From the IMG/VR virus record IMGVR_UViG_3300032144_000005: a stretch of DNA of 64,000 bases. The stretch is one strand, 5' to 3'. Shown here one piece after another: positions 15,158-44,481 of the stretch (position 1 is its first letter; each line of letters begins with the position of its first letter). A program made the translations under genes and the position numbers. Under the pieces are notes generated by a model that saw only the letters and a list, made by a program, of their open reading frames with translations, ran no database searches and had not been told where the DNA came from. This DNA comes from a virus.

Positions 15158-16732
15158 TTAGCTCGTGCCGCGACGGAACGGCAGCGTGGAGGTGTTTGAA
15201 TTACCCAGCGGATTGACGTTGGTGCCGCCGCCGGTGTTCAGGCCCTTGATGGCGTTGATAAGCTGGTTGTTCTGGTAGTAGCTGGAGAGCCCTTGGCCGA
15301 GACTGCCGAGTGCGCTGCCCGCAATCTGGCCGCCGCTGATCGGCTGCTCGTACTGGGCAGCGGTGTAGCCCGGCGTACCGGGCTGGTTCTGCCGGAAGAA
15401 CTGGAGGGTGCCGAGCAGCGCGTTGATGTCGTTGTAGGGCGCCTGCGCGGCGAGCTGGTCGAGCTGGAGCTTCGTCTGGGCGAGGCCGCCACCCGCGTTC
15501 AGATTGGCGAGGCGGGTCTGGACGTCGTTGCTGAACAGCGCGGCGTTGTCCGTGGTGTTCTGGAGGAGGGCACTCGCCTCGGCGGCGCGGGCGTTGGAGT
15601 CCAAGAACCCGGTGAGCGCCTTGAGATACTCGGAGTTCACGCCGAAGCGGCCCGTGGCGTCCGCCTCGTTGATGCCATACAGGCGGTTCGCCTGCTCAAC
15701 CCCGGCCTGCGCCCGCGCGCCGGACGCCTGCTGGTAGCCTTGCGCGAGGGTTCGGGCGCGCATGAGGGCGTCGCCCGAACCAGAACCAACGAAGCCAGCG
15801 AGGGCGCGCTGGGCGCTCTGGCGCTGGAGTTCGTTCTCGGTCGCCTGCTTGGCAGCGTTGGCGAAAGTGTCGGCCTGCAGCATGGCGGCATCGTAGATGC
15901 CTTGGCTGCCCGTGGTGCGCGTCTGCAGGATGCGGTCGAGATCGGACAACTGGCCTTGGTTCAGCTCGCCGTACTTCTTGCGCAGCTCGTCGATCTTCAT
16001 CTGCTCCGTGCCCGCGAGCTGGCTGCGCGCGGCATTGATCTCGTCCTGCTTGGCCTGCTGCTGGGCGAGGAACTGGCCCTGATAGAGGGCGTCGAGCGTC
16101 TGCGGGCCGTAGTCGAGCAGGCGCTGATACTGCGGCGGAAGCACCCAGCTCTCGGTGCTGGTCGTGCCGCCACCGCCGCCACCCGTCGTGCCACCGCCGC
16201 CGTAGGTGTTGGTGACAAAGGTCTGGAAGTCGCCCATCGAGTCGGGATTGGCGGCAAGGTGATCGCGGAGCCACTGAACCGGGGTCCGGTCATCCTCGCC
16301 CGGCGGGCGGTTGGCGTCGCTCCACGCCATGTGGCGGTTGTACTCGGCGGCAAAGCCGGGGTCCGAGTCGAAGTACGCCTGAGCCACGGCGTCATCGGAG
16401 AGCGACATCTGCGGGCTGACGTTGCCCGGACTCATGCTCGGGCTGATCCCAAGGATTCGATTCAGCAGAACCTGCTCAAGGCCCTGACCGTAGGCGGTGA
16501 AGCCGAGCGGCAGGACGGTGTTGACGGCGCTGCCTGCACCACCGGGAACACCAGCGAGTCCACCGGGATTGATGCCGCGAGACAGGAGGTACTGGTTCCA
16601 GTTGGCCTCGTTCGCCGCTGCGGCCTGTTCGGCGTTCGCGGTGTTCTGCGCTTGCTGGGCCTTCTTCGCGGCATTTCCCGCGATGAGCGACCCGCCTATA
16701 CCGATAACTGCGCCTGTGATTGCTGCGGACAT
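15158..16732 (-). CDS. Probable DNA pilot/ejection protein
   Basis: N-terminus MSAAITGAVIGIGGSLIAGNAAKKAQQAQ and C-terminus GGQIAGSALGSLGQGLSSY, with Q/A/G-rich composition typical of podoviral ejection proteins. Confidence 0.65.
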   Translation of the reverse strand: MSAAITGAVIGIGGSLIAGNAAKKAQQAQNTANAEQAAAANEANWNQYLLSRGINPGGLAGVPGGAGSAVNTVLPLGFTAYGQGLEQVLLNRILGISPSMSPGNVSPQMSLSDDAVAQAYFDSDPGFAAEYNRHMAWSDANRPPGEDDRTPVQWLRDHLAANPDSMGDFQTFVTNTYGGGGTTGGGGGGTTSTESWVLPPQYQRLLDYGPQTLDALYQGQFLAQQQAKQDEINAARSQLAGTEQMKIDELRKKYGELNQGQLSDLDRILQTRTTGSQGIYDAAMLQADTFANAAKQATENELQRQSAQRALAGFVGSGSGDALMRARTLAQGYQQASGARAQAGVEQANRLYGINEADATGRFGVNSEYLKALTGFLDSNARAAEASALLQNTTDNAALFSNDVQTRLANLNAGGGLAQTKLQLDQLAAQAPYNDINALLGTLQFFRQNQPGTPGYTAAQYEQPISGGQIAGSALGSLGQGLSSYYQNNQLINAIKGLNTGGGTNVNPLGNSNTSTLPFRRGTS

Positions 16733-17589
16733 TTTGCGTCGTGGGTCAGTAGCGCATCGAGTTCCAGCGCTGATTTTTTTGCAATCCCATAATCAACTGT
16801 GAGTTCCTCTCCCAGTCCGATCTGGCGCAGCGAAAACATGCCGATGCTCAGGTCCTCTGGGATGCAGCGAAATTCGCAATTCGGCGTGGCCGAATGATTC
16901 GTGTAGCGACCGAGAGGCGTGCGGCACATACCGATCCGCGCGGGCGCAATGCTGACTCCGTCATCGAACTCCATCGCGGCAAACATGCCGATGCCATGGA
17001 TGGATGACTTGTCCGGCCTGACGCGCACGTTCCACGGATAGGCGAGCGGGATCAGGTCATCGCTACCGCAGGTCATCTCCTCGACCTGCTGCTCCGTGTA
17101 GCCAAGCAGCGCGACGGTGCGTGAGAAGCTCTCGTGGTCCTTGACGATCTTGAGTGCCACCTCACCGGCTTTCATCCGGCGCTCGAAGTCGAGCTGGGCC
17201 GGGCTCTTGATGAGCAACTGCTCCTCCAGTGTGGCGATGTCGATCTCGTTGGTCGGGTGAATGGTGAGCCAGCGCGAGTCCTCGTGAATATATCCCACCT
17301 TGCGGTCGAACGCCTTGCCGACGAAGACGTCGCCACCTTTCATCTCGCGGACGTGGCCAGCGATCACCACCGACACGCGCCCGCTGAGAACGACGTTCAT
17401 GCAATCGTGCCGATGGGACATGCCGATAGCCAGCGTGCCCTCCTTGAAGCGAGCCTCGCGCATGTAGATACCGGGCGCGAAATGATGCACGACCTCCGGC
17501 AGCGTCTGCTCGTACTCCAGCATCTTCGCCTCCAGCGCCTCGATCTGCTCGGGCGTCACATAGCGGGACAGCATTAGTTCGAGGTCCAT
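16696..17589 (-). CDS. Cupin-like domain fused to SET-domain lysine methyltransferase
   Basis: N-terminal HHFAPGIYMRE..GTLAIGMSHRH..NVVLSG is cupin-like. C-terminal SSIHGIGMFA, RYTNHSATPNC and GEELTVDY are the three canonical SET motifs. Confidence 0.85.
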   Translation of the reverse strand: MDLELMLSRYVTPEQIEALEAKMLEYEQTLPEVVHHFAPGIYMREARFKEGTLAIGMSHRHDCMNVVLSGRVSVVIAGHVREMKGGDVFVGKAFDRKVGYIHEDSRWLTIHPTNEIDIATLEEQLLIKSPAQLDFERRMKAGEVALKIVKDHESFSRTVALLGYTEQQVEEMTCGSDDLIPLAYPWNVRVRPDKSSIHGIGMFAAMEFDDGVSIAPARIGMCRTPLGRYTNHSATPNCEFRCIPEDLSIGMFSLRQIGLGEELTVDYGIAKKSALELDALLTHDAKCPQQSQAQLSV

Positions 17590-19421: not shown

Positions 19422-21301
19422 ACCATGCGGGTCACCGACCGCGTGCCGACGACGTCGTACTCGGCGAGATAGCCGGTGAGTGAAGGTTGCTCAACCGCAG
19501 CGGAGTCGATGTCGACCCGCATCTCGAAACGGTGATAGATGCCGCGCTGCCACATGGGAACAATGGTGTCGCCGCCGGGAGTCGGCACGATCTGGGTGGT
19601 GCCCTGCGTGTCAACAGCAGCGACGTCCTTCTGGTAGAAGGAAGTGACGGTGAGCGGGAACGCGCCGCTCACGGAATTATACAGCGGGACGAAGGTGCGA
19701 ATATCCTTCTCGTTGAATGAGTCGTTCATCCACAGGAGCCCCGTGTGCAGGTCGGCGCTCCAGTTGGCACTGTTGCGCTGCATGATCGTTAGCTCGCGCG
19801 AGGTGCGACCGTACACGTTGATCATCCCGTTCGCCGTGCCCATGATGAACCACGACTCGGACGGGTCGCCGAGCTGGCCAGCGAGCGGCTTGCGCACCGT
19901 GGCGGCGGATCGGAACTGCCAGTCGTTGTTGATCGTCGAGACCGTGTTATAGAGGTACGAGTAGCAGAGGGTCGTGTACTGGCCCACGCCGAACGGCAGC
20001 ACGAAGAAGATCTCCGAGGTCACGCCGTTGTCCACGGCATAGACCGACTTCAGGTCTGTGACATCGTAGTCCTTGCTGAAGAACTCGGTGAACGCGCACT
20101 TGAATAGCGCCTCGTCGATTGATGGCTCCAGTGAGCCCAGCTCGTATTTGTAGAAGGCGGTCGCTCCAGCGTACAGGTGGAACTGGCCGCGCACATTGAC
20201 CAGTGTATGCGGAAACTTGAGGCCGCGCTCGCCTTGGTAGGTGCGGTCGAACTGGAACGGAAACTCGATGTTGCCCGTGTACACGCCGACGAACAGGGAG
20301 AACGGGCGGTACACCACGAGCCGGTTCTGGAGCGGCATCATTGCCATGATGGCGGAGCCGTCATCCTGAATGTCGTAGTAGCCGACCACTGATCCGATGG
20401 CGTCGGTGTCGCTCATCGGCGTATTGGAGACCGTGGCCCCAAGTGGCGAGAGTAGCACGGCGGTCGTGCCCGCGATGGACACAATGTTGGTGACAAGGTT
20501 GCTGCCGAGCGTGCCGCCACCGACGATAGTCACTTCGTCGCCCGGCTGGAACGAGGCCATCGGCCAGTCGAGCGTGACCGACGTTGACCCCGAGGTGCCG
20601 CTGACGTTCACCGTCGCCGCCCAGTCGGTCGGGTCGCTGACGTTCGACCAGATGATGCGGTACTGGGTGCGGCTCGTGTTGGTGGCAGGCGACGGCACGA
20701 GTCCGTACGGGTCGCCGCTGTTCATCAGCGTGGACATGTAGTCCGAGTTCACCTCGGTAATGTCGCCGAACATGATGAAGCCGGAGTATTCGGTCATCAC
20801 GCCCACGCTGGCGACGCCGCGCTCGCGCAGCTCGTAGAGCGGGGTGACGGACGCATCGCCCACGCGCCAAGACACCGGCAGGTCCACACCGTTGTTGAAC
20901 ACCGCGTAACCGTTCAACTGCTCCATGTCCCAGCGCCGGATTCCGGCGGTCTGGAAACCGGAGCCGATCTGCACCCACAGCCCGGTGTCGTAGTCGAAGT
21001 ACCGGATCGTGCTGCCGACGACGGCCACGACCACCGTCTTGCCCGCCGGGCTGTTCACCTCGGCCAGAAGCAGGACCTCCTGACCTAGTCCGGTGAACGA
21101 TTGCAGCGCGGCGGCAAAGCCGGGGTTCGGCTGCCACAGGCCCCAGCCCTCGCGCACCACCATCGAGTCCAGCCGACGGCGCCACCCGCTGGCCACACGG
21201 AAGTCGTGTGGCGCGATGGAGTCGAAGGAGAGGTCGTCGCAGAGCGAGCCTCCCGTGACGTACTTGGCCTCAAGGGCACCAAATGGACGCTTGTAGGGCA
21301 T
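19418..21301 (-). CDS. Probable tail nozzle/head-closure beta-propeller protein (P22 gp10/T7 gp12-like position)
   Basis: 627 aa, beta-rich with WD/YD-like blades. Start reassigned to the ATG overlapping the upstream TGA (TGATG). Assignment is from synteny after the adaptor. Confidence 0.55.
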   Translation of the reverse strand: MPYKRPFGALEAKYVTGGSLCDDLSFDSIAPHDFRVASGWRRRLDSMVVREGWGLWQPNPGFAAALQSFTGLGQEVLLLAEVNSPAGKTVVVAVVGSTIRYFDYDTGLWVQIGSGFQTAGIRRWDMEQLNGYAVFNNGVDLPVSWRVGDASVTPLYELRERGVASVGVMTEYSGFIMFGDITEVNSDYMSTLMNSGDPYGLVPSPATNTSRTQYRIIWSNVSDPTDWAATVNVSGTSGSTSVTLDWPMASFQPGDEVTIVGGGTLGSNLVTNIVSIAGTTAVLLSPLGATVSNTPMSDTDAIGSVVGYYDIQDDGSAIMAMMPLQNRLVVYRPFSLFVGVYTGNIEFPFQFDRTYQGERGLKFPHTLVNVRGQFHLYAGATAFYKYELGSLEPSIDEALFKCAFTEFFSKDYDVTDLKSVYAVDNGVTSEIFFVLPFGVGQYTTLCYSYLYNTVSTINNDWQFRSAATVRKPLAGQLGDPSESWFIMGTANGMINVYGRTSRELTIMQRNSANWSADLHTGLLWMNDSFNEKDIRTFVPLYNSVSGAFPLTVTSFYQKDVAAVDTQGTTQIVPTPGGDTIVPMWQRGIYHRFEMRVDIDSAAVEQPSLTGYLAEYDVVGTRSVTRMV

Positions 21302-22380
21302 CAGGGCGGAGAGACTCGGCCAAGGACTGTGCTCCGGCGGCGAGTGCAATCCACCCACAGCATGCGGACACCGCGCGCATAGAGGGCGAGGTGCTGCGAA
21401 GCGTTGCGCGAGTCGGCGTTGAGGGTTTGTTCGATGTTGCCACGAATGTAGTGCGCCAGCGGCTCATGCGTGGGGAAGTCGAAGGTGACGTCGTCGGCGT
21501 CGAGGAAGTCCTGCTTGAGCCCGTTGTACTGGACGCGGACCTGCAGGTCGGTATCGGTCGGCTTGAGCGCCGGGTACACGTACATCTTCCGACCCGTCGG
21601 ATCGACTGTGTAGCAATGCGAATGACCGGGCACCTTGCGCTCGGTCAGCTCCGGGTTGTTGAGCCAGTTGAGCGCACCGATAGGAGTCCAGCCGACGGTG
21701 TTCAGGAACTTAAACGTCGCCGTGCCGAGCACTTCGTCCTTGCCGTCCATCGACAGGAGTCCGCCACCAACCACCGACACCGTGCCGGGGACTACGCAGT
21801 GATAGATGCGACCGTTCGAGATCACCTTGTCGTTGGCGAGATATGCCTGCGCCGCGAGCGCTGGATAGAAGCGGCCAATCTCCACGCTGAGCAGCTCAGG
21901 GTTCGAGAGCACCGACAGGTCGATGAACGAGGCCATGCCGACATTGGTGACCTGCGCGTTGGTGTAGTACGAGTAGTTGCCGATCTGGTAGCACATCACC
22001 TTGCGCTGGAGGTCCACGCAGCCCGCCTTGAGCAGCGCGTCGAAGATGACCTTCATGGCGTCGAGGTCATCCATTGCCTCCTGAATCCACTTGTCCACGA
22101 CGGCAGCAATGGCGGTGCGCTGTGAGTCCACCGTGATGCGCACGAGCACCTCTGGCTTCATGACGGCGAACGACACCGTGACGAGCGTGCCAGCCAGCCC
22201 GACCTTGTGCTCGTTCCACGAGTTGAAGTACGACTTCGAGCGCTCAAGGTCTTGGTTCACCTCGCGCTCGATCTTGTACTTCACGTAGTTCGCCACGGCG
22301 TCGTACTGCATCTTGAGCATCTCTGCCCCGGCGTCGTAGAACGCCTGCACGCCCAGTCGGAGTTGTGCGAAGGTGGCCAT
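21301..22380 (-). CDS. Probable head-tail adaptor/tail tubular protein A
   Basis: Starts MATFAQLRLGV, has central KMYVYP and C-terminal PLAHYIRG..LYA. Size and position precede the nozzle. Based on synteny only. Confidence 0.5.
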   Translation of the reverse strand: MATFAQLRLGVQAFYDAGAEMLKMQYDAVANYVKYKIEREVNQDLERSKSYFNSWNEHKVGLAGTLVTVSFAVMKPEVLVRITVDSQRTAIAAVVDKWIQEAMDDLDAMKVIFDALLKAGCVDLQRKVMCYQIGNYSYYTNAQVTNVGMASFIDLSVLSNPELLSVEIGRFYPALAAQAYLANDKVISNGRIYHCVVPGTVSVVGGGLLSMDGKDEVLGTATFKFLNTVGWTPIGALNWLNNPELTERKVPGHSHCYTVDPTGRKMYVYPALKPTDTDLQVRVQYNGLKQDFLDADDVTFDFPTHEPLAHYIRGNIEQTLNADSRNASQHLALYARGVRMLWVDCTRRRSTVLGRVSPP

Positions 22381-22383
22381 CGG

Positions 22384-22641
22384 TTAGTCCGTCGCCGGAG
22401 TAGTGGGGCGCTTATCGAGTCCCTTCTCGGCGAGGATGGCCGCGAGGTCGTCGACGTGGAGGCAGTCACACATGCAGGCGCCGCTTTGCTGGGCGGGAAC
22501 TGCGATGCTGCCGTTGCAGTAGTCGTTGCCGGGCGTGGCGTCGTGCAGGATGCCGAACGAGACGATCTTTGCCGGGCCGCTCGACGTTAGCTGGATGATC
22601 TTGTCCCCATTCTGGGCGGGGCGCCCGTTGCGATAGTGCAT
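22384..22641 (-). CDS. Small hypothetical protein (MHYRNGRPAQNGDKI...)
   Basis: Tightly packed ORF with typical codon bias; Cys/His/Asp cluster CMCDCLHVDD. Confidence 0.7.
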   Translation of the reverse strand: MHYRNGRPAQNGDKIIQLTSSGPAKIVSFGILHDATPGNDYCNGSIAVPAQQSGACMCDCLHVDDLAAILAEKGLDKRPTTPATD

Positions 22642-22643
22642 GG

Positions 22644-23108
22644 TTAAGCTGCCTTCCGACGGGGTTTGGTTTTGATCGGGGCCAGCCGGTCCTTCTCGTC
22701 GATGAAGGGTTCGGGGCTCGCGACCGCGCCGAGCGCGACGCAGTCCTTGGGTTCGAGAATCTTAGTCGAGGACGACTCCGGCACCACGGGCCTTTCCGCA
22801 GACACCACACCCACGACCTCGCTCAGGGTCGGCCCCCGCTGAGCGGGCTGGCTTGATGCTTGCGAGGGAGTCGAGCTGGGAATTTTTTTTTTACGCTCCA
22901 GTTCCTTGAGGTACTCGCCCTCCGTGATCTCGGAGACGCCCAGCTTTTTCGCGATGGCAGCGAGCACGAGTTGCAGCTTCGGACCTTCATCGACAGCGAC
23001 TACGCCGAAGAGGCGTCCGCCGAATATCCCAGTGGGCTCGAAGGTGACGGTCGTCGCGCCTGAGATCAGCGGCCTATTGGCCATCTCGCTATGGAAGTAC
23101 CTTGGCAT
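22644..23108 (-). CDS. Hypothetical structural-operon protein; N-terminal domain paralogous to the C-terminus of the GT-like gene; internal A10 run
   Basis: Manual alignment YF-x11-G..T[IV][ST]F[KE]P..GG..[WF]GV..G[IV]..EY; T10 on the plus strand at 22883-22892. Confidence 0.75.
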   Translation of the reverse strand: MPRYFHSEMANRPLISGATTVTFEPTGIFGGRLFGVVAVDEGPKLQLVLAAIAKKLGVSEITEGEYLKELERKKKIPSSTPSQASSQPAQRGPTLSEVVGVVSAERPVVPESSSTKILEPKDCVALGAVASPEPFIDEKDRLAPIKTKPRRKAA

Positions 23109-23109
23109 G

Positions 23110-23433
23110 TTAATTCCTTTTTGCGAAGCCGCTCCGGTGGCGACCCTTCTCTACACAATCGCGCGTGTTTTCAGAGGCCGTTCCTAGCCACAGGTGGTCG
23201 GGGTGGATGCAGAGCGGCGTGTCGCACTCGTGGCAAACCACCATGCCATCAGGTATCGGGCCGTGCAGAAGTTCATATACCACGCGGTGGCAAAGATGGG
23301 TGCGGCCTTCGTGGCGAATCTGACCGTAGCCCCTTTTTGAGCGCAGTCCGGTCCAGATCAAGCACTCGCCATCGACCTGACATTCATCGGCAAGTCGATG
23401 ACCAACAGGCTCAGTTAGTCGTGGCATCACCAT
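23110..23433 (-). mobile_element. Free-standing HNH homing endonuclease
   Basis: CLIWTG..GYGQI..HRVVYEL.HGPIPDGMVVCHECDTPLCIHPDHLWLGTASEN; lower GC3 than neighbours. Confidence 0.9.
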
Positions 23434-23470
23434 GCGGACCTTCTGGGGCCTTCACCAAAAAATGCAACCC

Positions 23471-24490
23471 TCAAGCCTGCGCGAGCAGGGCGTTGTACTC
23501 CTCCTGCGGCACGCGCTTGATGCCAAACCTGCCCTCGTGGTCGGTGAGAAGGTACTCCTCGAACAGGCTCTTCGGTCGGTACACTCCCCATGCGGAGCCG
23601 CCCGGCCCGAGGGCGCAGGGCTTGAAGCTGATCGTGACGTGCCCGAGACGGAACTGGTGCTGGCTGCCAAGGACGGCGAAGTAGGCGGATGGCGAGACAG
23701 ACTCGGCGAGGAAGCGCGGGTACTTCAGCTTGGCCAGCGTGTTCATGAACGTGCTGTCCTTGTTCTGGTGGAACAGCGCGGTCTCCGGCTTCAGGATCGT
23801 CAGCAGGTTTTTCTCGTCGAAGACTGGCGGGCGCCATACGTGCTGGATGGAAGTGCACCGCGACATCTGCGGGATGATCTGCGGGCCTGCCCAGATGTCC
23901 CATGGCTGGCCCATCATGCCCGCGCTGGGTCCGGTCTTCGGGCCGGGAGCGGTCACGCTGTCGACGATTGCCGGAGCCAGCTTGCGCCAGTTGTGCGGGT
24001 ACACCGCATTGCCGGACATGTGTGGTGAACTCTTCTCGACATACACCCCCATGAAGGGCTTGCCCAAGGTGACGTACTCGTCGGCGATCTGGTCGAACCA
24101 GCCGGGCTTCGTCGGGATGGCATCGGGCTCGATCCACAGGACGGAGCGACCGGGGAACTCCCGCTCGCAGAACTCCAGCGAGCGCTCGAACAGGTGCGAG
24201 GCGCTGCGCGGGTAGCCGTCCTCACACTCATCCGGGCAGGTGGTGACGGTCAGCTCGAAGAACTCCGCCGACCACTGCGCGATCTGTCGCAGCTTCTCGC
24301 GCTGCGCGTCCGTCACGCGGCGGCTGGTGAAGATCACCAAGTGGTCGCCCGCGCACATGCCGCCTTCCTGCCGCGCGAGGAACACAGCCCACGTCATCCA
24401 TATTCGCGCCAGCCCAAAGTCGCGGTGAGATACTCCAAGAACGGCAACAGGGCGGGGCAGCGGCTTCGGCTTTTTCACGTAGTGCAACAT
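23471..24490 (-). CDS. Putative GT-A-fold glycosyltransferase-like protein with extra C-terminal domain
   Basis: beta-strand LWIEPDAIP (DxD-like, EPD), followed by GWFDQIADEY..GKPFMG..HMSGNAVYP. Lies immediately downstream of the capsid gene. Confidence 0.55.
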   Translation of the reverse strand: MLHYVKKPKPLPRPVAVLGVSHRDFGLARIWMTWAVFLARQEGGMCAGDHLVIFTSRRVTDAQREKLRQIAQWSAEFFELTVTTCPDECEDGYPRSASHLFERSLEFCEREFPGRSVLWIEPDAIPTKPGWFDQIADEYVTLGKPFMGVYVEKSSPHMSGNAVYPHNWRKLAPAIVDSVTAPGPKTGPSAGMMGQPWDIWAGPQIIPQMSRCTSIQHVWRPPVFDEKNLLTILKPETALFHQNKDSTFMNTLAKLKYPRFLAESVSPSAYFAVLGSQHQFRLGHVTISFKPCALGPGGSAWGVYRPKSLFEEYLLTDHEGRFGIKRVPQEEYNALLAQA

Positions 24491-24510
24491 GTGCAACGTG
24501 CTGCATTTCG

Positions 24511-24546
24511 GTCAAAACAAAACCCCAGCCCTTTCGAGCTGGGGTT
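24511..24546 (-). terminator. Intrinsic terminator after major capsid gene
   Basis: Minus strand AACCCCAGC-TCGAAAGG-GCTGGGGTT followed by TTGTTTT. Confidence 0.85.
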
Positions 24547-24597
24547 CTATGCCGAGACCGACGCAGCCGTGACACTGCGTAAGTATCGAAGGTTGGT

Positions 24598-26259
24598 TTA
24601 GCTCTCGTACACCGGGCAAGGACCGGCGCTGAGGATCGGGCACTCGGAGCTGAAGTTCTTGGCGATGAGGTGGCGCTCAGGGCGGTACACCGCAGCGGTC
24701 CAAGTGGTGGACTCCAGCTTGTACGTCTTCTCGTTCATCGCGATGACGCAGCGGTAGTCGCTCGGGATGACCTTCGGGTCAGGGAAGTTCCGGGTGACCG
24801 AGGCCGTCTTGGCGATGCCGATGTCGATGTCCGAGTAGTCGAGGAACCACATGTAGCGGTTCGCCGACTTGTGGGCATCGGGCGTGGCGAGGAGCAGGTC
24901 GTTGAAGAACGGGTCCGACACGACGTCCAGCTCGACACCGGCTTCGTCGAAGTCGTACGTGTTCACCGACAGGCCGGAGGTCTGGGAGAACTTCTCCGCC
25001 GGACCCTTGCCGATTTCCTGCGTGTAGGTGATGCCGTACTTGTCCTTGTAGTAGGCCGCGAAGATCTTCTTCACGCCGTTGGCGGTCGCGCGATCCGTCT
25101 GGGCCGGGATGACCTCGACGGCGTCCGACTGGCCGGACGTGGACTCGCGGTTGCGCTTGAGGTTGTACAGCGACTCGGAGAGCGAGTCGAAGTTCAACGG
25201 GGCGCCCGCGAAATCCGTGATGCGCGAGCACTTGGCGAGCTGGTACTCGATGCCCTCGGCGTTCGCCTTGTACTCCAGCACGCAGGTCGGGTCGTCGATG
25301 TCAGTGACCTCGGGCAGCTTGCCCGGCCCCTGCCAGTTGTTGACGTCCTGATACTCGTTGATCGGCTGGCCCTTGAAGATCGAGGTCCACCACTCGTCGT
25401 AGTAGATCTTGGTCTGCTGCACGAGCTGCTCCGAGTACGGCAGCATGTTGAAGACCTTGAAGAACTCGTTCATGTTCGGAGCCTGAATCGCCTTCAGGTA
25501 CTCCGAGGAAACAACGTGCGCCTTGCGGCTGGTCTGCAGCCAGAAGAAGATCAGGTTGTTCGGGTTGTTGATCGCGTTGTTATTGCACCACTGCTCGAAG
25601 TCCGAGATCGAGTTGGCGCCGGTCATGATCATGCCGCCCGTCGGCTGCCACGCTTCCTTCTGCGTGGGCGTGTAGCCCGCGAAGGTGGCGGAGGTGACGT
25701 TCGGCTCGACGACGACCGTGGCCTTCGGGTAGGTGACCGTGGAATCCACGGCGGAGATCACCTTGAAGGCGGAGTTCACCGCGACGCCCGTGCCGGAGAG
25801 GAACGTGACGAAGATGTACTTGCCCGCGATGAAGTAGCGGTCGATGCGGGGGAGCACGTTCTGCCACGGCGACGCCGTGTTCACGACTTCGAGATTCCAG
25901 CGGTAGCCGTTGTTGTCGGAGCCGGACTCGATGGTGAAGTAGCCGGAGTTGACCACCGTCTTCTGCCGGTACGGGACGTACGGCGCGATGATGGACTTGG
26001 GCTGGCCGATGTTGATCTGGGAGATCTTCTGCTTAAAATCGCGGAGGCGACCCTGCAGAATCATCGAAATGGGACGCTGGACAACGCCACGCATCCCGGC
26101 CTCGGCAGCCTGAGCATAGACCCGCTGAAGGTCTTCTTGGTCGCCGAGTGCCGCGAACTCGTCGGGGGTCATCGCGATGGCGGATGCACGGGTGAACGAG
26201 CAGCCGGAACCGTCACGAATGTTGACCACCTTCGGGAGACACTGGTTGAAATAAGCCAT
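24598..26259 (-). CDS. Major capsid protein
   Basis: 553 aa from MAYFNQCLPK. Follows portal and scaffold, has very strong codon bias and is flanked by terminators. No family match could be confirmed by eye. Confidence 0.7.
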   Translation of the reverse strand: MAYFNQCLPKVVNIRDGSGCSFTRASAIAMTPDEFAALGDQEDLQRVYAQAAEAGMRGVVQRPISMILQGRLRDFKQKISQINIGQPKSIIAPYVPYRQKTVVNSGYFTIESGSDNNGYRWNLEVVNTASPWQNVLPRIDRYFIAGKYIFVTFLSGTGVAVNSAFKVISAVDSTVTYPKATVVVEPNVTSATFAGYTPTQKEAWQPTGGMIMTGANSISDFEQWCNNNAINNPNNLIFFWLQTSRKAHVVSSEYLKAIQAPNMNEFFKVFNMLPYSEQLVQQTKIYYDEWWTSIFKGQPINEYQDVNNWQGPGKLPEVTDIDDPTCVLEYKANAEGIEYQLAKCSRITDFAGAPLNFDSLSESLYNLKRNRESTSGQSDAVEVIPAQTDRATANGVKKIFAAYYKDKYGITYTQEIGKGPAEKFSQTSGLSVNTYDFDEAGVELDVVSDPFFNDLLLATPDAHKSANRYMWFLDYSDIDIGIAKTASVTRNFPDPKVIPSDYRCVIAMNEKTYKLESTTWTAAVYRPERHLIAKNFSSECPILSAGPCPVYES

Positions 26260-26311
26260 GGGGATTAACCTTGTTGAGGTTGGCAGCAGTATGCCAGAGA
26301 CCATGGCTCCC

Positions 26312-26349
26312 AAAAAGAAAACACCCTCAACGATTTACCGTTGAGGGTG
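26312..26349 (-). terminator. Intrinsic terminator between scaffold and capsid genes
   Basis: 11-bp stem CACCCTCAACG/CGTTGAGGGTG followed on the minus strand by TTTTCTTTTT. Confidence 0.8.
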
Positions 26350-26388: not shown

Positions 26389-27864
26389 TCAAACTTTGTC
26401 GTATCCGAGGGCGGCGAGGACTGGGTTGGCGGGCGGCTTGGCAGCGCCCTTCGCGCCGACCGTCGCGCCCGGTGCGGGTTGCGATCCGCCCTTCGGCGGC
26501 GGGGGTGTGGCGGCCTTCGGTGCAGCGGCAGCAGCGGGCTTCGCGGGCGCGGCGGCGGGAGAGGTTGCAGCGGCAGCGGGCTTCGCCGCTGGTGCCGCCT
26601 GCGTGGCAGCCACCTTTTTGTAGCCGGAGGCTTCGAGCTTCGCGTGCTCGGCCTTGATCGTGGCCGTCAGGTAGTTTTTCCCTGACGCGGCGAGCATGTC
26701 CACGACGTCCATGGTGGTGAACGTGCGGATGCCGGTGCGCTTGTGCTCGGGCGTCTCGTTGAACTTCTTCACCGAGACGAGCAGCTTGCCGTCGCGCATG
26801 CGCTTGTCCTCGGGCATTGCATCGAGCAGCTCGCCCTGACGCTTCACGAAGTTGGCGACCGTCTTGTGGATGCCGTTGTCGGGGTTGAACTCGATGACGC
26901 CGTTGGCGATCAGCATGTACTGGCGCACGTTTTCCTTCGTGTCCTCCATGATGATCGTGGCAACCGGGGCCTCCACACCGTACGACTTGAGGGCGGCGCT
27001 CGGGTTGGCCTTCATCGCCTCGGCGATGGGTTTGTCCAGCGCGCTGAGCACGTCGTCCTCGACGGCCTTCAGGGTGTCGCGCACGAGCGGCGTGACCTGC
27101 ACCTCGTTCAGCTTGCGGCGGTAGGCTTCGAGCTGGGGCATCAGTTTCTCCTGCGCCTTCTGCGCGCCACGCTCTTCGGCGCGCGTGAGCATCAGCTCCT
27201 CGCGGTCGCCGGGCCGGTAGGTCGGGCGGTTCTTCCGCAGGAAGTCCTGATACTCCTCGGTCGTGTGGTCGAACTTGCCGTCGGTGTCCGTGTTCTCGGC
27301 GATGAACGTCCGGTGCTTGGCGATGAAGTCGATCTCGCGCTTCTCCATGTCGGCGTACACGTCCGGCAGTGCCTTGGCCGCGAACTGGGCCAGCTCCAGC
27401 GAGCGGCGTTCCTGCGGGAGGAGCTTGCCGTACTTGGCCAGCGGGTCGTCGGCGGTGCCGGGGTCGGGCTTCTTGGTGGTGGCCTCCCTGATGGCCTCGT
27501 CCAGCTCCTCGCGGGTAACCGCCTTGGGCTCGTCCGGGCGCACCTTCTTGGCGCGCTCGGTCGGCGGCGTGGTTACAGGGGGCGCTTCAGCAGCGGGTTC
27601 AGCAGGTGGAGCCGCCTCACCCTCTGGCGTCGCAGGTTCCGCTTCGGCGGCAGGGGCTGCGGCTTCGGGATCAGGTTCCGCTCCCGGCGCCGGATCAGCA
27701 GGTGTAGTGGCTTCCCCAGCATCGGGATCAGGTACTTCGGTTTGGGCCTTCTTGTCGACGTAGTAGCCGAGTATTTTCAGCATGTTGTCCGGCGAGGCTT
27801 CCGCCTTCGCGGGAGCTGCGGGCGCCTCTGCGGGCGCGGGGGTGGTCGGTTCATCGGGTGGCAT
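26389..27864 (-). CDS. Probable capsid scaffolding protein
   Basis: Pro/Ala/Glu-rich termini and helical core; lies between portal and capsid. Confidence 0.65.
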   Translation of the reverse strand: MPPDEPTTPAPAEAPAAPAKAEASPDNMLKILGYYVDKKAQTEVPDPDAGEATTPADPAPGAEPDPEAAAPAAEAEPATPEGEAAPPAEPAAEAPPVTTPPTERAKKVRPDEPKAVTREELDEAIREATTKKPDPGTADDPLAKYGKLLPQERRSLELAQFAAKALPDVYADMEKREIDFIAKHRTFIAENTDTDGKFDHTTEEYQDFLRKNRPTYRPGDREELMLTRAEERGAQKAQEKLMPQLEAYRRKLNEVQVTPLVRDTLKAVEDDVLSALDKPIAEAMKANPSAALKSYGVEAPVATIIMEDTKENVRQYMLIANGVIEFNPDNGIHKTVANFVKRQGELLDAMPEDKRMRDGKLLVSVKKFNETPEHKRTGIRTFTTMDVVDMLAASGKNYLTATIKAEHAKLEASGYKKVAATQAAPAAKPAAAATSPAAAPAKPAAAAAPKAATPPPPKGGSQPAPGATVGAKGAAKPPANPVLAALGYDKV

Positions 27865-27867: not shown

Positions 27868-30351
27868 TTACATCGAGGGCACGCCCACTGGCTCCTGCAT
27901 GGCCTGCGGCGGAGGCGGCAGTCCGCCGCGTCCCATGCCGCCCTGCATCATCATCTGCATGAGCTGTTGGATAGTCTGCTTCAGTTCTCCGATGGTGCCG
28001 GAGTCCGCCTGCTGCTTCTGGGTGAGCTGCTGCACGGCCTGACCGATCTGCTGCATCGCGCCCTGCATCTCCTCGTTCGGAGCGCCCATCGGCTGCGAGC
28101 CGTCCGTGCCGGGCGGCAGGGCGATGCGCAGGTCGAAGCCCGCGCCCATGTTGCGGGACGCCTCGTTGATCAGCTCCACCACCTTCTCCTTCGGGATCAC
28201 GCTGGCCATCGGGCCGGAGCTGATGACCTGCAGGAGCTGGATCATGTTGTTCGCCGTGGCCTGCGAGGACGGGCGCTCAAGGCCGTCGCGTGTGGTGAAG
28301 AGGTACTCGGCGACGAGCTGCGTCTTGTTGCCCGTTACCGTGAAACGACCGCTGTCGAGTGGCTTGAACTCGGTGGTTGTCGGATCTCCGTCGGACTCGA
28401 CGATGACGAACCCGGCATCCGTGATGGTCTTCGCGGTGTAGCGGTCCTGCACGGACAGGTTGATCTCGTCCGAGCCGAAGGCCATCGACGCCTCGTACAG
28501 GATGCGCTTCTTCGCAGCCAGTCCCTCCTCGATGCCGATGGTGTGGAAGTCGCGGACGCCAAGGGTGGTGTTGTTCACCATGTTCGCCTCGGTCGCGGTG
28601 ATCTCGCGGGGCGCAACCTGACCGAGTTCCTGCGGGGAGAAGAACAGGAGGCGCTCGCAGAAGGCCAGAAGTTGAACGATGGTCCGCAGAATCTCGGCGG
28701 TCTTCTCGGCGGTCTGAACCTCGACAGCCCGCACGCGCTGCACGGTGCGCGGGTCCACGCCCATGTCCTTCAGGTTCTCGGCGGAGTATTTGACGATGAT
28801 GTTCGACGCCGCGTAGTAGTTGCGGTTGCGCATCGAGTCCTCGAAGGACTTGATGTCGCCCTCCTCCATGCCGTCGATGTTCAGCTCGTAGATCTTTGTC
28901 AGCCCTTGGAGCTGGATCTCCAGCATCTGCGAGAGGAGGTTGGAAACTTGATCCTGCGTGGGCAGCACGGCATGCGCGAACGAGGTCGAGTACATCCGAC
29001 TGTCATTCTCGTTGTAGCTGTACACCACGGCAGGATTGGAAGGCATCGGTTCCGCGTACATGATGGTGCGCGTCCCGCCCACCATGAATCGCAGCCACAC
29101 GTCGGCGTCGTACTTGCAGATCCCGTACTTCTTCGGGTTCAGCTTCATGAAGACCTCGGCCTTCGTGCACGACACGTCGTCGCTTTGCTGCGCCCAGTAC
29201 CCGACGTTCGCCAGCCGGTCGTTGCCCATCGAGTAGGCGTTCCCGAGATTGTCCTTGGTCGGGAAGACGATGGCGTCCGGGTAGTAGATGCGGAAGTACG
29301 CATCGTTCGAGGCAAGGAACTCGTAGGCTGCCGGGTTCAGCTCAATCGCATCGCGGTTCCAGTAGTCGGTATTGGTGCGGATTTCGCGCAGCCGAACGAT
29401 GTCCCAGTACCCGACGTACTCCGGCCCGCAGTTGTTGTTCAGCTTGGAGAGGGGCTTCGAGATGTCCCAGAAGGTGCGGCTCGGGTGCGGCGCGGTGAAC
29501 TCGACACCCTCGCGGGCGATCCGGTCCTCGACCACGTAGTCCGTCTCCTCCGGCCCGATCCCTGTCGCGTCGTCCTTGGGCTTGGCCACGTAGGCTGGCT
29601 CCATGTCGCGGGTCCATGAGCTGCGACAGAACTCGATCTGGTGGGCGTAGCACGAGGAGTCGCGGACGGACTGGACGATGTCGTGCTTGTACCCGAACGC
29701 CTCACTCATCTTCTCGACGTACTGGGTCACCAAGTCGGCGCGGAACTTCGAGGTCTGACTGGTGCCCGCCGGGTCGTAGCGCAGGAAGGGGAAGCGGGTG
29801 GCTATCGGTGTCGCCACACTGGCGACGCGGCGACTGACCATCGAGTGCGTGATGTTGTACGACACCTCGAAGAAGCGCGGCCAGTTCACCTTGAACGGCC
29901 TGCCATCCTTGCTCTCGATGATGCGGCCCCGCAATTCCGGCGAGAGCTGGTCGAGCTGCTTGGCGCAGGTGTCGAGGTTGATTAGACCTTGGCCGAGCAT
30001 GACCAGCGGGAAGGTGGTCTTGTTGTACGGCGTCGAATCCATCGCGATGTCAACCGGCGCGTACAGGCGGAACGAATCGAAGCTGCGTTGCCATCCTTCC
30101 GTGAGCCGGGCCTCGATCAATCCTTCGAGATAGCACCGCAGCTCGTAGTCGGTCGGATTCTCCGGCAACCGGAAGACCTCAGAGGTGGGCTCGACCCACT
30201 GCATGCTGTACTTGTCGCCCGATTTCAGGAACGCGCTCATCTTGACGCGCGAGGGCGCCTGATCCTTGGTCGGTGGCTCAGCGGTGGCGATTGCCTTGAG
30301 ACGCTCCACCGTTAGTCCGAGCGATGACGCAATATCCGGGTCGAAGGCCAT
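27868..30351 (-). CDS. Portal protein
   Basis: 827 aa, helical, with Q/M/P-rich C-terminal tail. Downstream of terminase and upstream of scaffold/capsid. Confidence 0.7.
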   Translation of the reverse strand: MAFDPDIASSLGLTVERLKAIATAEPPTKDQAPSRVKMSAFLKSGDKYSMQWVEPTSEVFRLPENPTDYELRCYLEGLIEARLTEGWQRSFDSFRLYAPVDIAMDSTPYNKTTFPLVMLGQGLINLDTCAKQLDQLSPELRGRIIESKDGRPFKVNWPRFFEVSYNITHSMVSRRVASVATPIATRFPFLRYDPAGTSQTSKFRADLVTQYVEKMSEAFGYKHDIVQSVRDSSCYAHQIEFCRSSWTRDMEPAYVAKPKDDATGIGPEETDYVVEDRIAREGVEFTAPHPSRTFWDISKPLSKLNNNCGPEYVGYWDIVRLREIRTNTDYWNRDAIELNPAAYEFLASNDAYFRIYYPDAIVFPTKDNLGNAYSMGNDRLANVGYWAQQSDDVSCTKAEVFMKLNPKKYGICKYDADVWLRFMVGGTRTIMYAEPMPSNPAVVYSYNENDSRMYSTSFAHAVLPTQDQVSNLLSQMLEIQLQGLTKIYELNIDGMEEGDIKSFEDSMRNRNYYAASNIIVKYSAENLKDMGVDPRTVQRVRAVEVQTAEKTAEILRTIVQLLAFCERLLFFSPQELGQVAPREITATEANMVNNTTLGVRDFHTIGIEEGLAAKKRILYEASMAFGSDEINLSVQDRYTAKTITDAGFVIVESDGDPTTTEFKPLDSGRFTVTGNKTQLVAEYLFTTRDGLERPSSQATANNMIQLLQVISSGPMASVIPKEKVVELINEASRNMGAGFDLRIALPPGTDGSQPMGAPNEEMQGAMQQIGQAVQQLTQKQQADSGTIGELKQTIQQLMQMMMQGGMGRGGLPPPPQAMQEPVGVPSM

Positions 30352-40403: not shown

Positions 40404-40775
40404 TCAGTTCTCGTCGTATATCATCCGCGCCTCAGCCAACACGCGCTCGGTGTTGTAGTGGTCGGGCAGGCTCTCCTCGGTCATCGACGACACGAGATAA
40501 ACCCCCTTCCCCTTCCTCGTTAGGACCATGTAGAGCGTGTGCTCCGGGTAGCGGGCAGCCTTGGTTCCAAAGCAGAGCGCGGTGAACGTATGCGACTTCA
40601 ACTTCTGGAAGAAGTCGACGTTCGCATAGTGCTCCTCGAACTTGGCAATGGATTCCTCGATGCGCTGCCGGTACAGATCGCTCTCCACGTCCGTCCTTGG
40701 CCTCCTGTACAGCTTCTTGTGGTAGGCGTTGATCTCACTCAACGCCGTAGCTGTTAGCTCCACCTTCGTTTTCAT
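40404..40775 (-). CDS. Hypothetical protein
   Basis: AGGAGG 4 nt before ATG, a rare SD in this genome; overlaps the JAB gene end. Confidence 0.65.
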   Translation of the reverse strand: MKTKVELTATALSEINAYHKKLYRRPRTDVESDLYRQRIEESIAKFEEHYANVDFFQKLKSHTFTALCFGTKAARYPEHTLYMVLTRKGKGVYLVSSMTEESLPDHYNTERVLAEARMIYDEN

Positions 40776-42012
40776 ATGCCTCCTGTATTGCCTGTTGGTT
40801 GGCGTGTCCCTTGAACACCTTCTGGGCGTCGTAGGCCGCGTTGATCTTGGCGACTGACTCGGTGGTGCACCACGTCCCTTCCTTGGTGGTGGTGTACCCG
40901 TGCTTGGCGAGGAACGTGGCCGCAGCGGTGAAGCTCTCGAACTCGATCCATTGCCACAGGTACTTCAGGTCGAAGTCGTAGCCGCAGATGCCTTCGCTCG
41001 GGTGGATCACCGGCTCGCTGCGAGCGGTGATGTTGTCGAGGGTCCACTGCTCGTCGGCAGCGATCTCTAGCTGTCCTGCAACGTCCCCTGCAGGACCTTG
41101 CGTGCCTCCCCCTTGCTGATTCGCATGGCCTTGCGCAGCGTGGAAACTGCCCGGCGGAAGCTCGTGGTCCCAGCGCGCACCTCCTTGGCCAGCAAGCCCG
41201 CCGCCAGCATGCAGCCGATGGTTGCTCGGGGCATAGACGGTTCGCGGGAACTGCTCCCACTCCTCTCCGCCCTGCCGTGGCCATGTCGTCGGTGTGTATG
41301 TTGGCTGCTGAAATCGGATGAGGTTCTCCGACCATCTGGCCGGGAACCCCACCTCGTTGCTGACGGGCGCCTTCAGCAGGGCCATCAAGATTTCATTGTG
41401 GGTGGATACGGGCAGCATCGTCGCGAGCGCACTCGGAATCTCGAACCAGTCGGAGGCCACCACGTTCTCGAAGAAGTGTTGGATGCCGGGACGGATGACG
41501 TTACCGGCGCTGTCCAGCTCGCCGGGGAACTTCATCGACACGCGGCTGTGCAGGTCGAGCTTCGCCTGACCGAGGTGACCGACCGTCATGTGCAGGCCGA
41601 CGATGGTCTCCTCGTTGCTCTTGTCCGTGCCGGACTGGAAGGCGCCCGCCGAACAGTGGTGGTGCACGGTGCCCATGTACAGCCACGGGTCGCCGAAGAT
41701 GGCGAGGTCGATGGCCATGTGGGCGTGGTCGGGCAGCTCACGGGTGGTCATGCCCGTCCCGTATTGCTGCGGGAAGGCATGCGGCATCCACTCGCGGGTG
41801 ACCGGGTTGTAGTACAGGCGCACCTGCACCTCGTGTTCCTTGTGGGCAAGGAAGAACGCGATGATGGTGTGCCATGTGGTGACGGGGATCTTGGCCCCGC
41901 GCCAACGGACGCCGGGCACTCCTTCCTTCGCTTCGACAAAGGGCGAGAAGCCCTCGAATAGGTCGCTCTGGAATGGCTTCCAGATCTTCCCTGAGTTGAT
42001 GATATATGTCAT
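40735..42012 (-). CDS. JAB/MPN metalloprotease (prokaryotic deubiquitinase-like) with C-terminal extension
   Basis: Upstream Glu (HEVQ), GTVHHHC (HxH), AFQSGTD..E (S-x2-D) and GLHMTVG. Confidence 0.85.
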   Translation of the reverse strand: MTYIINSGKIWKPFQSDLFEGFSPFVEAKEGVPGVRWRGAKIPVTTWHTIIAFFLAHKEHEVQVRLYYNPVTREWMPHAFPQQYGTGMTTRELPDHAHMAIDLAIFGDPWLYMGTVHHHCSAGAFQSGTDKSNEETIVGLHMTVGHLGQAKLDLHSRVSMKFPGELDSAGNVIRPGIQHFFENVVASDWFEIPSALATMLPVSTHNEILMALLKAPVSNEVGFPARWSENLIRFQQPTYTPTTWPRQGGEEWEQFPRTVYAPSNHRLHAGGGLAGQGGARWDHELPPGSFHAAQGHANQQGGGTQGPAGDVAGQLEIAADEQWTLDNITARSEPVIHPSEGICGYDFDLKYLWQWIEFESFTAAATFLAKHGYTTTKEGTWCTTESVAKINAAYDAQKVFKGHANQQAIQEAYENEGGANSYGVE

Positions 42013-42030
42013 GGGATTGTTGGTTGGGGG

Positions 42031-43500
42031 TTAGAGAACCTCGATGCGTTGGATGTGGGTGCCCGTGCACTCGCTGTCGGTCACGTCGCTGTCGCGCAAC
42101 TCACTATCCATCTCGCTGAAGTAATCCATCTTGTCGTTGTCTCGCAGCCACTGCAGGACAGCTTCGGTGCCCTCCTCGTAGATGCTGCGCGGGATGTCGA
42201 ACTCGCCCTCCTCGAACACGCGGTGGTATTCGGTAACGAACTTGGTGACGTCCTTCTTGATCTTGATGGTGACCTCGACCGTGTCTTCGTCGCTGTCGGT
42301 GCCGGATTCCTGCTCCGGCAGCAGCTCGATGATGCGCAGGTGGTGCACACCGATGGCCGCGTTGATCAGGTCCTCGCTCAGCACCTTCTCGCGCCTCGGC
42401 GCCAACTGGCCGGGATTGGCCATCAAGTGCGCCATCACCTTCTCGGTGGTGTCGCACTCGACGGGGAGCTGGACGCCCGTGATCTGGAAGCACCGGCCAC
42501 GGCAGAACGTGGTGGCCGGATACTGGCGGATGATGTCAACCATCTGCTCACCGAGCCAGTCATGCAGCATCTGCTCTGTGATCTCGGGCGGTGCGTCCGG
42601 CGCGTTCAGAATCTCCTGCCACTCGCGCGGGCACTCGATCAGGCAGCTCTTGGCGATCAGCATGGGGATGCTGTCATCCCGTGTGCCCAAGTAATAGCCG
42701 GGGCTACTCACCTCGACCTTGACCGGCTGCCTGCTGCCGAGCGCCGTGAGGACAGGCAGCATCCACTCCTGCATGGCGTGCAGCTCCTCCGGCACCTCGA
42801 CGTAGTGGCAATAGCGGAGCTGCAGCCAGTAGTCGGACGACCCGTTGTGGGTGACGTGGATGGCGGCGTGCTGGTTGGCATCGTCGTTCACCCGCATGTC
42901 GATCACCGAGAACTCAAGGTAGCCGTTGCTGCGCAGGCGCTGTTCGAGGTGCTCGGGCAGGTCGCCGTTGTCCTCCTCGTGGAGCGCGATTACCTTGCCG
43001 ACGAGCGACGCCGCTTGGACGGCTTCGATCACGCACTCGTGGTCGAGCAGGTTCGGCTCGGCGTCAGCGTCGGGGATGATGTCCCACGGATTCACCCGGT
43101 CGAACTGGATGCGGGTGTCGAGGATCTCCGCCGTGACGTAGATCTCGTTCCGGTCTTCCGTGGTGTTGTTCACCCCGTCGAAGATGATGCGCACCAGTGC
43201 CTCGCCATCGAGGTTGTCGTACGCCTCCTCGTACTCGCCGAGATATTCCTCGGAGAAGCCAAGGTTCTTGACCCTGACCCTGCCGTCGTGGAACGGGTTG
43301 CGGCACAGTGAGAGGTGCTCACGGGCCACCTGATAGAAGTCCTCGTCGCCCTCGCCATAGCGGAGGATGACTTGGCCGTTGATGTCGACGTACGGTGAGT
43401 ACCACACGTCGGTCAGGGGACCGTTCTCACCGCTGTACTGGTGAAGAAAGTCCGGTTGGATTCGGGCGAATAGAAACCCGATGCGGGTTGGCTTATTCAT
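42031..43500 (-). CDS. Acidic 489-aa hypothetical protein inside the Ubl operon
   Basis: Strong codon bias; between E1 and JAB genes; no recognised motif. Confidence 0.75.
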   Translation of the reverse strand: MNKPTRIGFLFARIQPDFLHQYSGENGPLTDVWYSPYVDINGQVILRYGEGDEDFYQVAREHLSLCRNPFHDGRVRVKNLGFSEEYLGEYEEAYDNLDGEALVRIIFDGVNNTTEDRNEIYVTAEILDTRIQFDRVNPWDIIPDADAEPNLLDHECVIEAVQAASLVGKVIALHEEDNGDLPEHLEQRLRSNGYLEFSVIDMRVNDDANQHAAIHVTHNGSSDYWLQLRYCHYVEVPEELHAMQEWMLPVLTALGSRQPVKVEVSSPGYYLGTRDDSIPMLIAKSCLIECPREWQEILNAPDAPPEITEQMLHDWLGEQMVDIIRQYPATTFCRGRCFQITGVQLPVECDTTEKVMAHLMANPGQLAPRREKVLSEDLINAAIGVHHLRIIELLPEQESGTDSDEDTVEVTIKIKKDVTKFVTEYHRVFEEGEFDIPRSIYEEGTEAVLQWLRDNDKMDYFSEMDSELRDSDVTDSECTGTHIQRIEVL

Positions 43501-44230
43501 TACTGGGGTCCTTTTTCTTGAGGGTTGTGATGCGACTGAAGTTCGAGGCGTGACGAATCGGCGAGTAATCGAGCGCCTCCTGCTCGATGTCCGATGCCAT
43601 CTGGTAGTGATACCACATGAGATGAAGTCCGTAGGTGGCGGCGCACAGGTTCGCGATGGCGAGCTGCGGCGTCTGCTCCTGCGCCTGCCCCGTGCACCCC
43701 GCCTGTGCGGCGAAGGGATCGTCCTCCTTGTTGGTGAGGATCTCGGGGAACATGACGCGCGGGTCGAGCTTGGTGCCCTTCCATTGCGGCGTGTAGAACT
43801 GGGCCTCGGCGTCGGTGTAGCCGTTGCCCGTCATGATGACGTCGCAGCCCTTGCGGTCGGCGGCGTCGAGGATGCGCACGCGACCCGGATGGTTGTCAAC
43901 GCAGGCGAACACCAGCGCGCCCGCCTTCAACCACGGCTCGTCGCCGCTGAAGAAGCTGGTGATCGCACTGAAGCGGCCCTTGTAGTAGTCGTCGCTCGCA
44001 TCGAAGAGGGCGATGGACTTGTACTGCCCGAGGTTGGACTCACTGAAGAGCTGCCGGTCCATGTTCTTTTCTTCGAGCGTGTCGCCGTCGACCAAGACGA
44101 TCTCGGGAGAACGGCTCGGGTTGCGGTGGTTGCGAACGGAGCGGAGGAGCGGCGGAATGAGATAGCTGCCGACCCCACCGCAGCCGACGATGACGATCTG
44201 GTCGGGCCAAGGTTTGAGTTCTGATTTCAT
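43493..44230 (-). CDS. E1-like (ThiF/MoeB family) Ubl-activating enzyme
   Basis: IVIVGCGGVGS, VDGDTLEEKNMDRQLF, K, FACVDN, R, TGN and candidate catalytic Cys in AGCTG..QLAIAN. Start reassigned to MKSELKPW. Confidence 0.92.
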   Translation of the reverse strand: MKSELKPWPDQIVIVGCGGVGSYLIPPLLRSVRNHRNPSRSPEIVLVDGDTLEEKNMDRQLFSESNLGQYKSIALFDASDDYYKGRFSAITSFFSGDEPWLKAGALVFACVDNHPGRVRILDAADRKGCDVIMTGNGYTDAEAQFYTPQWKGTKLDPRVMFPEILTNKEDDPFAAQAGCTGQAQEQTPQLAIANLCAATYGLHLMWYHYQMASDIEQEALDYSPIRHASNFSRITTLKKKDPSNE

Positions 44231-44481
44231 GATTTGATGAGGAGCTGGAAGAGCCGTTGGGTTTTGGCTCGGTTGAAGATTTCGTTGTGGATGGCGACGA
44301 ACTCGGCGGCCTTGGTGGCGGCCTCCCGATACTTGGTGGGCGACAGGAGGTACGCCATCGTCGATGGATTGAGCGCCATCTCCTCGATGGTGGAGCCGAT
44401 CTTGCCTTGCGTGACCAAGTCGACTGGCACCGGGTAGGTGCGGAGCTGGTCGCTCAACAGGGTGTGGAGGAGCTTGCTCAT
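44227..44481 (-). CDS. 84-aa hypothetical protein between E2 and E1
   Basis: Translationally coupled by overlaps on both sides. Confidence 0.7.
   Translation of the reverse strand: MSKLLHTLLSDQLRTYPVPVDLVTQGKIGSTIEEMALNPSTMAYLLSPTKYREAATKAAEFVAIHNEIFNRAKTQRLFQLLIKS

Follow-up and report, generated by a model that had tools for sequence, protein, structure and literature searches.

Immediately behind its presumed major capsid protein gene, a 64,000-nt stretch of DNA from an uncultured soil phage (IMGVR_UViG_3300032144_000005; the window) encodes a protein with a predicted glycosyltransferase fold, P0001 (23471-24490; ATG start, alternative TTG at 24496), whose C-terminal ~70 residues are, by profile comparison, homologous to the N-terminal domain of a small neighboring protein, P0002 (22644-23108, 154 aa). 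Every gene of the region is on the minus strand (−), as are the domains and the hairpin located below. The N-domain of this small core protein recurs on glycan enzymes in three architectures, which is best explained by enzyme addressing and suggests a domain that guides its enzyme to the virion. We regard as evenly balanced between right and wrong the reading in which P0001 is a glycosyltransferase-A (GT-A) enzyme brought by a P0002-type domain to the site of P0002, with virion glycosylation as the outcome.

The shared domain spans P0001 residues 271-341 (23474..23686; numbered from the TTG at 24496) and P0002 residues 3-74 (22887..23102), with the P0002 family as the donor. An earlier note on this DNA, written without database searches, had aligned the two termini over what correspond to P0001 272-334 and P0002 4-66, and the similarity it pointed to holds up at the family level. 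Taken alone, the pair is too weak to decide the matter (BLASTP E 0.064, 14/54 identities); hhalign with the first small alignments gave P 0.007, a reciprocal small-family hidden Markov model (HMM) was not significant, and a profile from more distant C-domains alone recovered neither P0001 nor P0002. An HMM was then built from the N-domains of 124 stand-alone members, with P0002 excluded and no transferase in it, and searched against 13,670 open reading frames (ORFs) and proteins. It matched the P0001 C-terminus (E 6.8e-6, model positions 4-72 of 76) and the P0001 homologues P0005 (E 7.4e-7) and P0009 (E 4.9e-5). Profile-profile comparison by hhalign of a 77-sequence and a 127-sequence alignment gave a probability of 94.9% and E 4.5e-8 over 71 columns, covering exactly the residues listed above. 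The predicted structures agree, and the difference in fold that the note had named as a refutation is not seen: in AlphaFold2 models (P0001 predicted local distance difference test (pLDDT) 94.2, predicted template modeling score 0.90; P0002 N-domain pLDDT ~97), both domains are predicted to share a fold of five strands followed by a helix, then one further strand and helix, with 8/8 elements coinciding in the hhalign register. A chance resemblance between unrelated domains, which the weak pairwise, reciprocal and distant-profile results would allow, is highly improbable given that a model free of P0002 and transferases still matches at E 7e-6 to 7e-7, that profile-profile alignment and predicted secondary-structure order concur, and that natural fusions place a full P0002 after the catalytic domain, at the same position.

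The N-terminal ~260 residues of P0001 have, as far as prediction can tell, a GT-A glycosyltransferase fold, so that the other refuting condition of the earlier note, an N-terminal part that is not GT-A, does not apply either. The catalytic domain covers residues 15-262 (23711..24454). The best Foldseek matches in the PDB were all GT-A proteins (B3GalT5, glycogenin, COLGALT1, B3GNT2 and XylT1; E 1e-7 to 1e-5, top E 1.4e-7, probability 1.0), and VIA-align superposed ~205-216 residues, within model residues 13-267, at Z 13-14.6, with glycogenin, B3GalT5/6 and LARGE1 among the matches and top values of 14.6, 14.1, 14.0 and 13.9 (207-216 residues). With many GT-A families scoring within 1 Z of one another, the protein cannot be assigned to a CAZy family. 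Four residues, E123, D125, W133 and H243, do not vary in any of 77 sequences, and E123-P-D125 forms a putative ExD variant of the DxD-type motif. By analogy, the E-x-D together with the distal His resembles the GT8 metal site, the acidic-x-acidic pair and the His being presumably spaced like the metal ligands of glycogenin. P0001 is thus like the GT8 (glycogenin, LgtC, GlyE) and GT31 (B3GalT5/6) enzymes in its predicted fold, which matches over ~13-267, and in its putative acidic-x-acidic motif on the central strand, but unlike them it has ExD instead of DxD and no sequence model of these families matches it. P0001 and its 13- and 77-member alignments hit no Pfam or NCBIfam family beyond stray matches, and profile searches of PDB sequences with the family returned nothing relevant.

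Relatives of P0001 number 12 in a word-indexed protein collection and occur on at least 91 IMG/VR stretches, while a single scan of 185,579 species genomes found the transferase family on 3 metagenome-assembled genome contigs only, so that the family seems close to phage-restricted. Elsewhere among phage contigs, this 245-residue domain occurs in fusions with regions of the GT2, GT9, FkbM methyltransferase and Stealth/DUF6492-like types; these partners are glycan enzymes, and the fusions therefore fit glycan chemistry. One relative with a degenerate C-domain, P0006 (L001:10001-11032; L numbers denote related loci throughout), comes from another phage type with no such capsid-like gene in 21 kb, and is flanked by Methyltransf_24, GIY-YIG and DegT-type aminotransferase genes.

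The donor of the shared domain, the P0002 family, comprises 390 representative clusters (E <= 1e-3, exhaustive profile search); in the word-indexed collection, P0002 has only 3 relatives. P0002 itself consists of the ~70-residue folded N-domain, a basic KKK patch, a disordered tail with a short motif, and a basic C-terminal end, and the family consensus reads M.RYF...NA.RP...GG..F.F.P....GG.W.GV, followed later by GV.EI....Y....KKK. The tail (residues 75-154, 22647..22886) is mostly a disordered Pro/Ala/Ser/Val-rich linker carrying a conserved V-x-S/P-P-x-P-F/L motif and the basic C-terminus, and is modeled almost without secondary structure (AlphaFold2 pLDDT 61-85). Neither P0001 nor P0002 could be named from Pfam, PHROGs, NCBIfam or PDB sequences; a BFVD fold search with the P0002 domain found only an unnamed 101-aa protein (E 1.8e-4), and Atlas gave nothing usable.

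Loci of this lineage were gathered via the capsid-like protein and then scanned with the family HMMs. Wherever a locus extends far enough downstream, a P0002-family gene follows the capsid-like gene at a distance of 0.1-3 kb, and it is the immediate next gene in L095 and L096. In six loci (L094, L095, L096, L100, L102 and L105), the P0002 gene is present although the 17-22 kb retrieved contain no transferase domain. Among 86 loci scanned, the N-domain turned up solely in those with this type of capsid-like gene. Since P0002 is found in all adequate loci, including the six without a transferase nearby, it is, judging by this distribution, a lineage-wide core gene whose role is independent of the enzyme.

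Enzyme and P0002 are combined in several ways across the lineage. Of the 150 best representatives, about 18 measure ~400 aa and join the catalytic domain (E 1e-29 to 1e-54) to a whole P0002-like protein behind it, and in L084 and L085 such a transferase-P0002 fusion is the sole P0002 copy. In the five contigs reaching far enough (the window, L091, L089/90, L087 and L003), the enzyme instead bears a copy of the N-domain only and is accompanied by a separate P0002 gene. This is the next gene in L089/90 and L091; in the window, L087 and L003, inserted genes come between. The short transferase-attached copies group in a single clade (support 0.98) that includes the copy of P0009, a 542-aa protein whose C-terminal extension is of another kind, whereas the fused copies fall among the stand-alone ones; the P0001 copy is therefore old, and not a recent duplicate of its neighbor. 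A third arrangement is found at L084:13763-14908, where the N-domain (E 5.6e-16) precedes a weak GT2-like region (Pfam E 0.0027, under the cut-off), so that read-through into a downstream neighbor cannot explain it. A 795-aa transferase in L031/L097 possibly carries a weak N-terminal copy (E 0.06).

The N-domain was also seen in three proteins whose remaining parts have no Pfam match, namely behind a 215-aa part in P0118 (415 aa), behind a 277-aa part and the transferase domain in P0081 (679 aa), and possibly twice in P0101 (212 aa). In L084 and L085, the fusion, directly behind the capsid-like gene, is followed by islands (L084:11209-20400 and L085:11236-19400) encoding GT2, FkbM (Methyltransf_21) and several Methyltransf_24 proteins together with a Metallophos protein of 759 aa and numerous ORFs of unknown function; by gene content, these islands are candidates for multi-step glycan synthesis.

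Taken together, these results lead us to propose that P0001 is an accessory, phage-specific GT-A glycosyltransferase occupying a slot behind the presumed capsid gene, which would most likely use a nucleotide sugar and a metal held by the ExD motif and the His. Its C-terminal 70 residues would represent an ancient, separately evolving copy of the P0002 N-domain that most likely serves as an address, the enzyme going where that N-domain goes, either through co-assembly with P0002 or by binding P0002's own partner in the head or neck. Once there, it could glycosylate a virion protein during assembly, and sister lineages, in which the enzyme is fused to a complete P0002, may reach the same outcome in that way. 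The earlier note had read the shared domain as a possible capsid-docking or hetero-oligomerisation module; the proposal widens that idea, which is partly and indirectly supported by the core status of P0002, the fusions and the GT2-like carrier. Catalysis, docking and the virion as target are what we infer from the homology and the gene arrangements. More tentatively, and with doubt prevailing, the ~70-residue domain may be the dedicated address tag of the lineage, able to deliver any carrier enzyme to the P0002 site in the head or neck; its carriers include the GT-A enzyme (as a short copy or a full fusion), the GT2-like enzyme, and other N-terminal modules.

Several observations weigh against a virion-directed enzyme. 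The C-termini of the capsid-like protein are alike with and without a transferase and show no acceptor-like extension among the 14 proteins compared, and no other recognizable glycan gene was found in the window. The virion location of P0002 is putative, being based on gene neighborhood, and the predicted fold of the protein has no informative relative (best PDB Z 5.2, generic alpha+beta, RRM/ACT-like). Because it is encoded behind a strong terminator in the tail-gene block, P0002 is probably not made in capsid-shell amounts. Fusions of neighboring genes can also arise and persist without a targeting role. Finally, neither P0001 nor P0002, nor the fusion, nor the capsid-like protein has a counterpart in INPHARED (50,697 records; five queries), and no cultured relative of the lineage was found. 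A complex prediction for P0001 with P0002 scored 0.00, a value that, with controls not run, speaks neither for nor against binding.

The strongest competing explanation, possible although we think it rather unlikely, is that the target lies outside the virion. The enzyme would then modify a host envelope glycopolymer (in superinfection exclusion or lysogenic conversion) or phage DNA, and the C-domain would be a recombination by-product kept as a stabilizer. Known phage glycosyltransferases chiefly act on DNA or host surface polymers (PMC12619734; bioRxiv 10.1101/2023.12.21.572611), and P0001 is like the DNA-hypermodifying (Pyle et al., bioRxiv 10.1101/2023.12.21.572611) and host-polymer transferases in being a phage-encoded accessory of a kind often mobile between genomes. 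The transferase gene adjoins an opposite-strand integrase island in L002 and L003, in a moron-like manner; the catalytic domain has 80 IMG/VR relatives, most of which are without the shared domain and come from other contexts; and AlphaFold2 packs the P0001 C-domain against the catalytic domain with high confidence, as would suit a stabilizer. A mere by-product, however, fits less well with a shared domain that persists as a distinct clade, is borne at the N-terminus by a different, GT2-like enzyme, and belongs to full fusions that stand in for the core P0002 gene in L084 and L085. Unlike the DNA- and host-polymer-directed transferases, the P0001 gene is located in the structural block and is joined, physically or genetically, to a structural-module protein. 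The DNA-modifying enzymes differ further in their base-modification partner genes, none of which was found in the window: 0/58 window ORFs match a DNA methylase, TET/JBP, a hydroxymethylase or a Gtr-type membrane partner, with ~9 kb of the contig lying beyond the window.

P0002 might alternatively be the acceptor rather than the guide. Like would pair with like, and the enzyme would glycosylate the Ser/Thr/Pro-rich P0002 tail, in cis when fused, in the manner of glycogenin. The enzyme-P0002 fusions in ~18 representative clusters, the disordered, Pro/Ala/Ser-rich character of the tail, and the presence of glycogenin within the tied top structural matches would all suit such a scheme. We nonetheless judge it improbable, since P0002 is retained in loci without a transferase nearby, its tail is not mucin-like (mean Ser+Thr share 0.16), and this share shows no clear difference between loci with the enzyme (~0.165, 8 loci) and without it (~0.12, 6 loci), while the glycogenin match reflects the general GT-A fold, for which many families lie within 1 Z.

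To our knowledge, some actinobacteriophages are the only phages whose particles have been shown to be glycosylated. Mycobacteriophage virion glycosylation by phage-encoded glycosyltransferases was reportedly the subject of work by Freeman and colleagues in Cell Host Microbe in 2023. According to the accessible portions of PMC11256854, PMC12619734 and PMC13313380, phage-encoded transferases in mycobacteriophages glycosylate the virion, the capsid and tail-tube subunits bearing their glycans at the C-terminus, and these portions do not describe how the transferases find their virion targets. The system proposed here, in which P0001 is addressed by the P0002-type domain, would resemble those of mycobacteriophages in that the phage has its own glycosyltransferase gene with a virion protein as the expected target. 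L084 and L085 add methyltransferases and further transferases, as mycobacteriophage cassettes do in the accessible portions of their descriptions. The proposed system differs from the mycobacteriophage (Che8-like) ones in showing no homology to them, as tblastn with P0001 and the fusion P0049 found none in the 50,697 phage records; in its podovirus-like gene order and uncultured soil lineage; and in an enzyme bearing a domain derived from the head module, which is not mentioned for those systems in the same portions of PMC11256854, PMC12619734 and PMC13313380. Likewise, a shared addressing domain is undescribed in what was accessible of this virion-glycosylation literature (PMC11256854, PMC12619734, PMC13313380), a limited search that does not prove absence.

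The locus provides a testable handle, in the form of a 70-residue domain that a core head-module protein has in common with glycosyltransferases of at least two kinds, and that occurs naturally both fused and split, so that the forms can be compared. If the domain is indeed a docking tag, it would explain targeting and offer a marker for virion-glycosylating phages in metagenomes, and two sizeable unnamed families, the 390-cluster small-protein family and the phage-restricted GT-A family, would receive names. An address tag would further imply modular virion sugar-coating outside actinobacteriophages, and the enzyme of the fused lineages would itself be a virion component.

The wider locus has a gene order that resembles that of T7-like podoviruses. 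Terminase is followed by a portal-sized ORF (27868-30351, 827 aa), a low-complexity scaffold-like ORF (26389-27864, 491 aa), the 571-aa ORF (24598..26313), the terminator, and the adaptor-like and nozzle-like genes. The adaptor-like gene (21301..22380, 359 aa) just missed the cut-off for PF24175 SU10_adaptor (E 3.5e-5, 24.8 bits; cut-off 27), and the 646-aa ORF after it matches phrog_3287, a virion structural protein (E 3e-24); beyond it lie fiber genes and a giant protein of 2967 aa. An 85-aa ORF (22384..22641) that separates P0002 from the adaptor-like gene has no Pfam or PHROG match; L091 lacks it, and the P0002 homologue there directly adjoins a 353-aa adaptor-sized gene.

The 571-aa ORF is called the major capsid protein because of this podovirus-like gene order, the sole basis for the name. 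The earlier note had placed the pair right after the capsid gene; the position is correct, whereas the capsid identity derives from synteny, as nothing in Pfam, PHROGs, PDB sequences or the INPHARED cultured-phage records matches the ORF and every one of its 66 homologues is unnamed. An Atlas feature search proposing a tail sheath (0.88, 120 shared features) was below threshold and contradicts the gene order, and was set aside as noise. The capsid-like protein shares 76% identity with its homologue in L091 (L091:10001-11665), the closest relative of the window, against 40% for the transferase (L091:14396-15397) and 33% for P0002 (L091:15438-15944), and the slot is thus either evolving much faster than the capsid-like gene or exchanged among phages. 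The C-termini of the capsid-like proteins (24598-24640 in the window) share NFS-x-x-C-(P/A)-...-C, with two cysteines invariant in 14/14 compared; these could form a disulfide or a metal site.

An intrinsic-terminator-like hairpin (24511..24550), with a 12-bp GC-rich stem, a GAAA-type loop and a U tract, separates the presumed capsid gene from that of the transferase. The surrounding minus-strand sequence (24495-24600) folds at -52.8 kcal/mol (z -7.4), a value equaled by 0/200 shuffles, although a simple consensus terminator scan did not pick up the hairpin. Counterparts follow the homologous gene in L095 (11639-11735), L096 (10713-10840), L091 (11663-11760) and L084 (9867-10003), the last being the weakest of the relatives checked (z -2.1). 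This conservation argues for a terminator that would lower expression of the transferase, P0002 and the tail genes relative to the capsid-like protein. Because P0001 and P0002 lie behind it, in one block with the tail genes, the shell is no likelier a site than the neck, the tail or a vertex.

The gene layout, the sequences and the HNH gene between the pair are as the earlier note had described them. This gene (23110..23433) matches PF13392 (E 3.3e-13, 49.5 bits; cut-off 24.8) and phrog_1872 (E 3e-29), and is missing at the same site in L091, where 40 nt separate the transferase stop from the start of the P0002 homologue; in L002, an HNH gene lies on the opposite side of the transferase gene. 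From these matches and positions, it is an HNH_3 endonuclease gene and a mobile insertion with no bearing on the P0001/P0002 pair.

Across the 58 window ORFs, the Pfam scan also identified SET, ThiF, ThiS, tyrosine integrase, PNKP phosphatase, IstB-like and Peptidase_S74 domains (16696-17589, 40735-45734, and the integrase gene). In L002 (10944-13562) and L003 (10914-13296), an opposite-strand island comprising a tyrosine integrase gene and three small ORFs lies inside the structural block, where it separates the transferase gene from the P0002 homologue.

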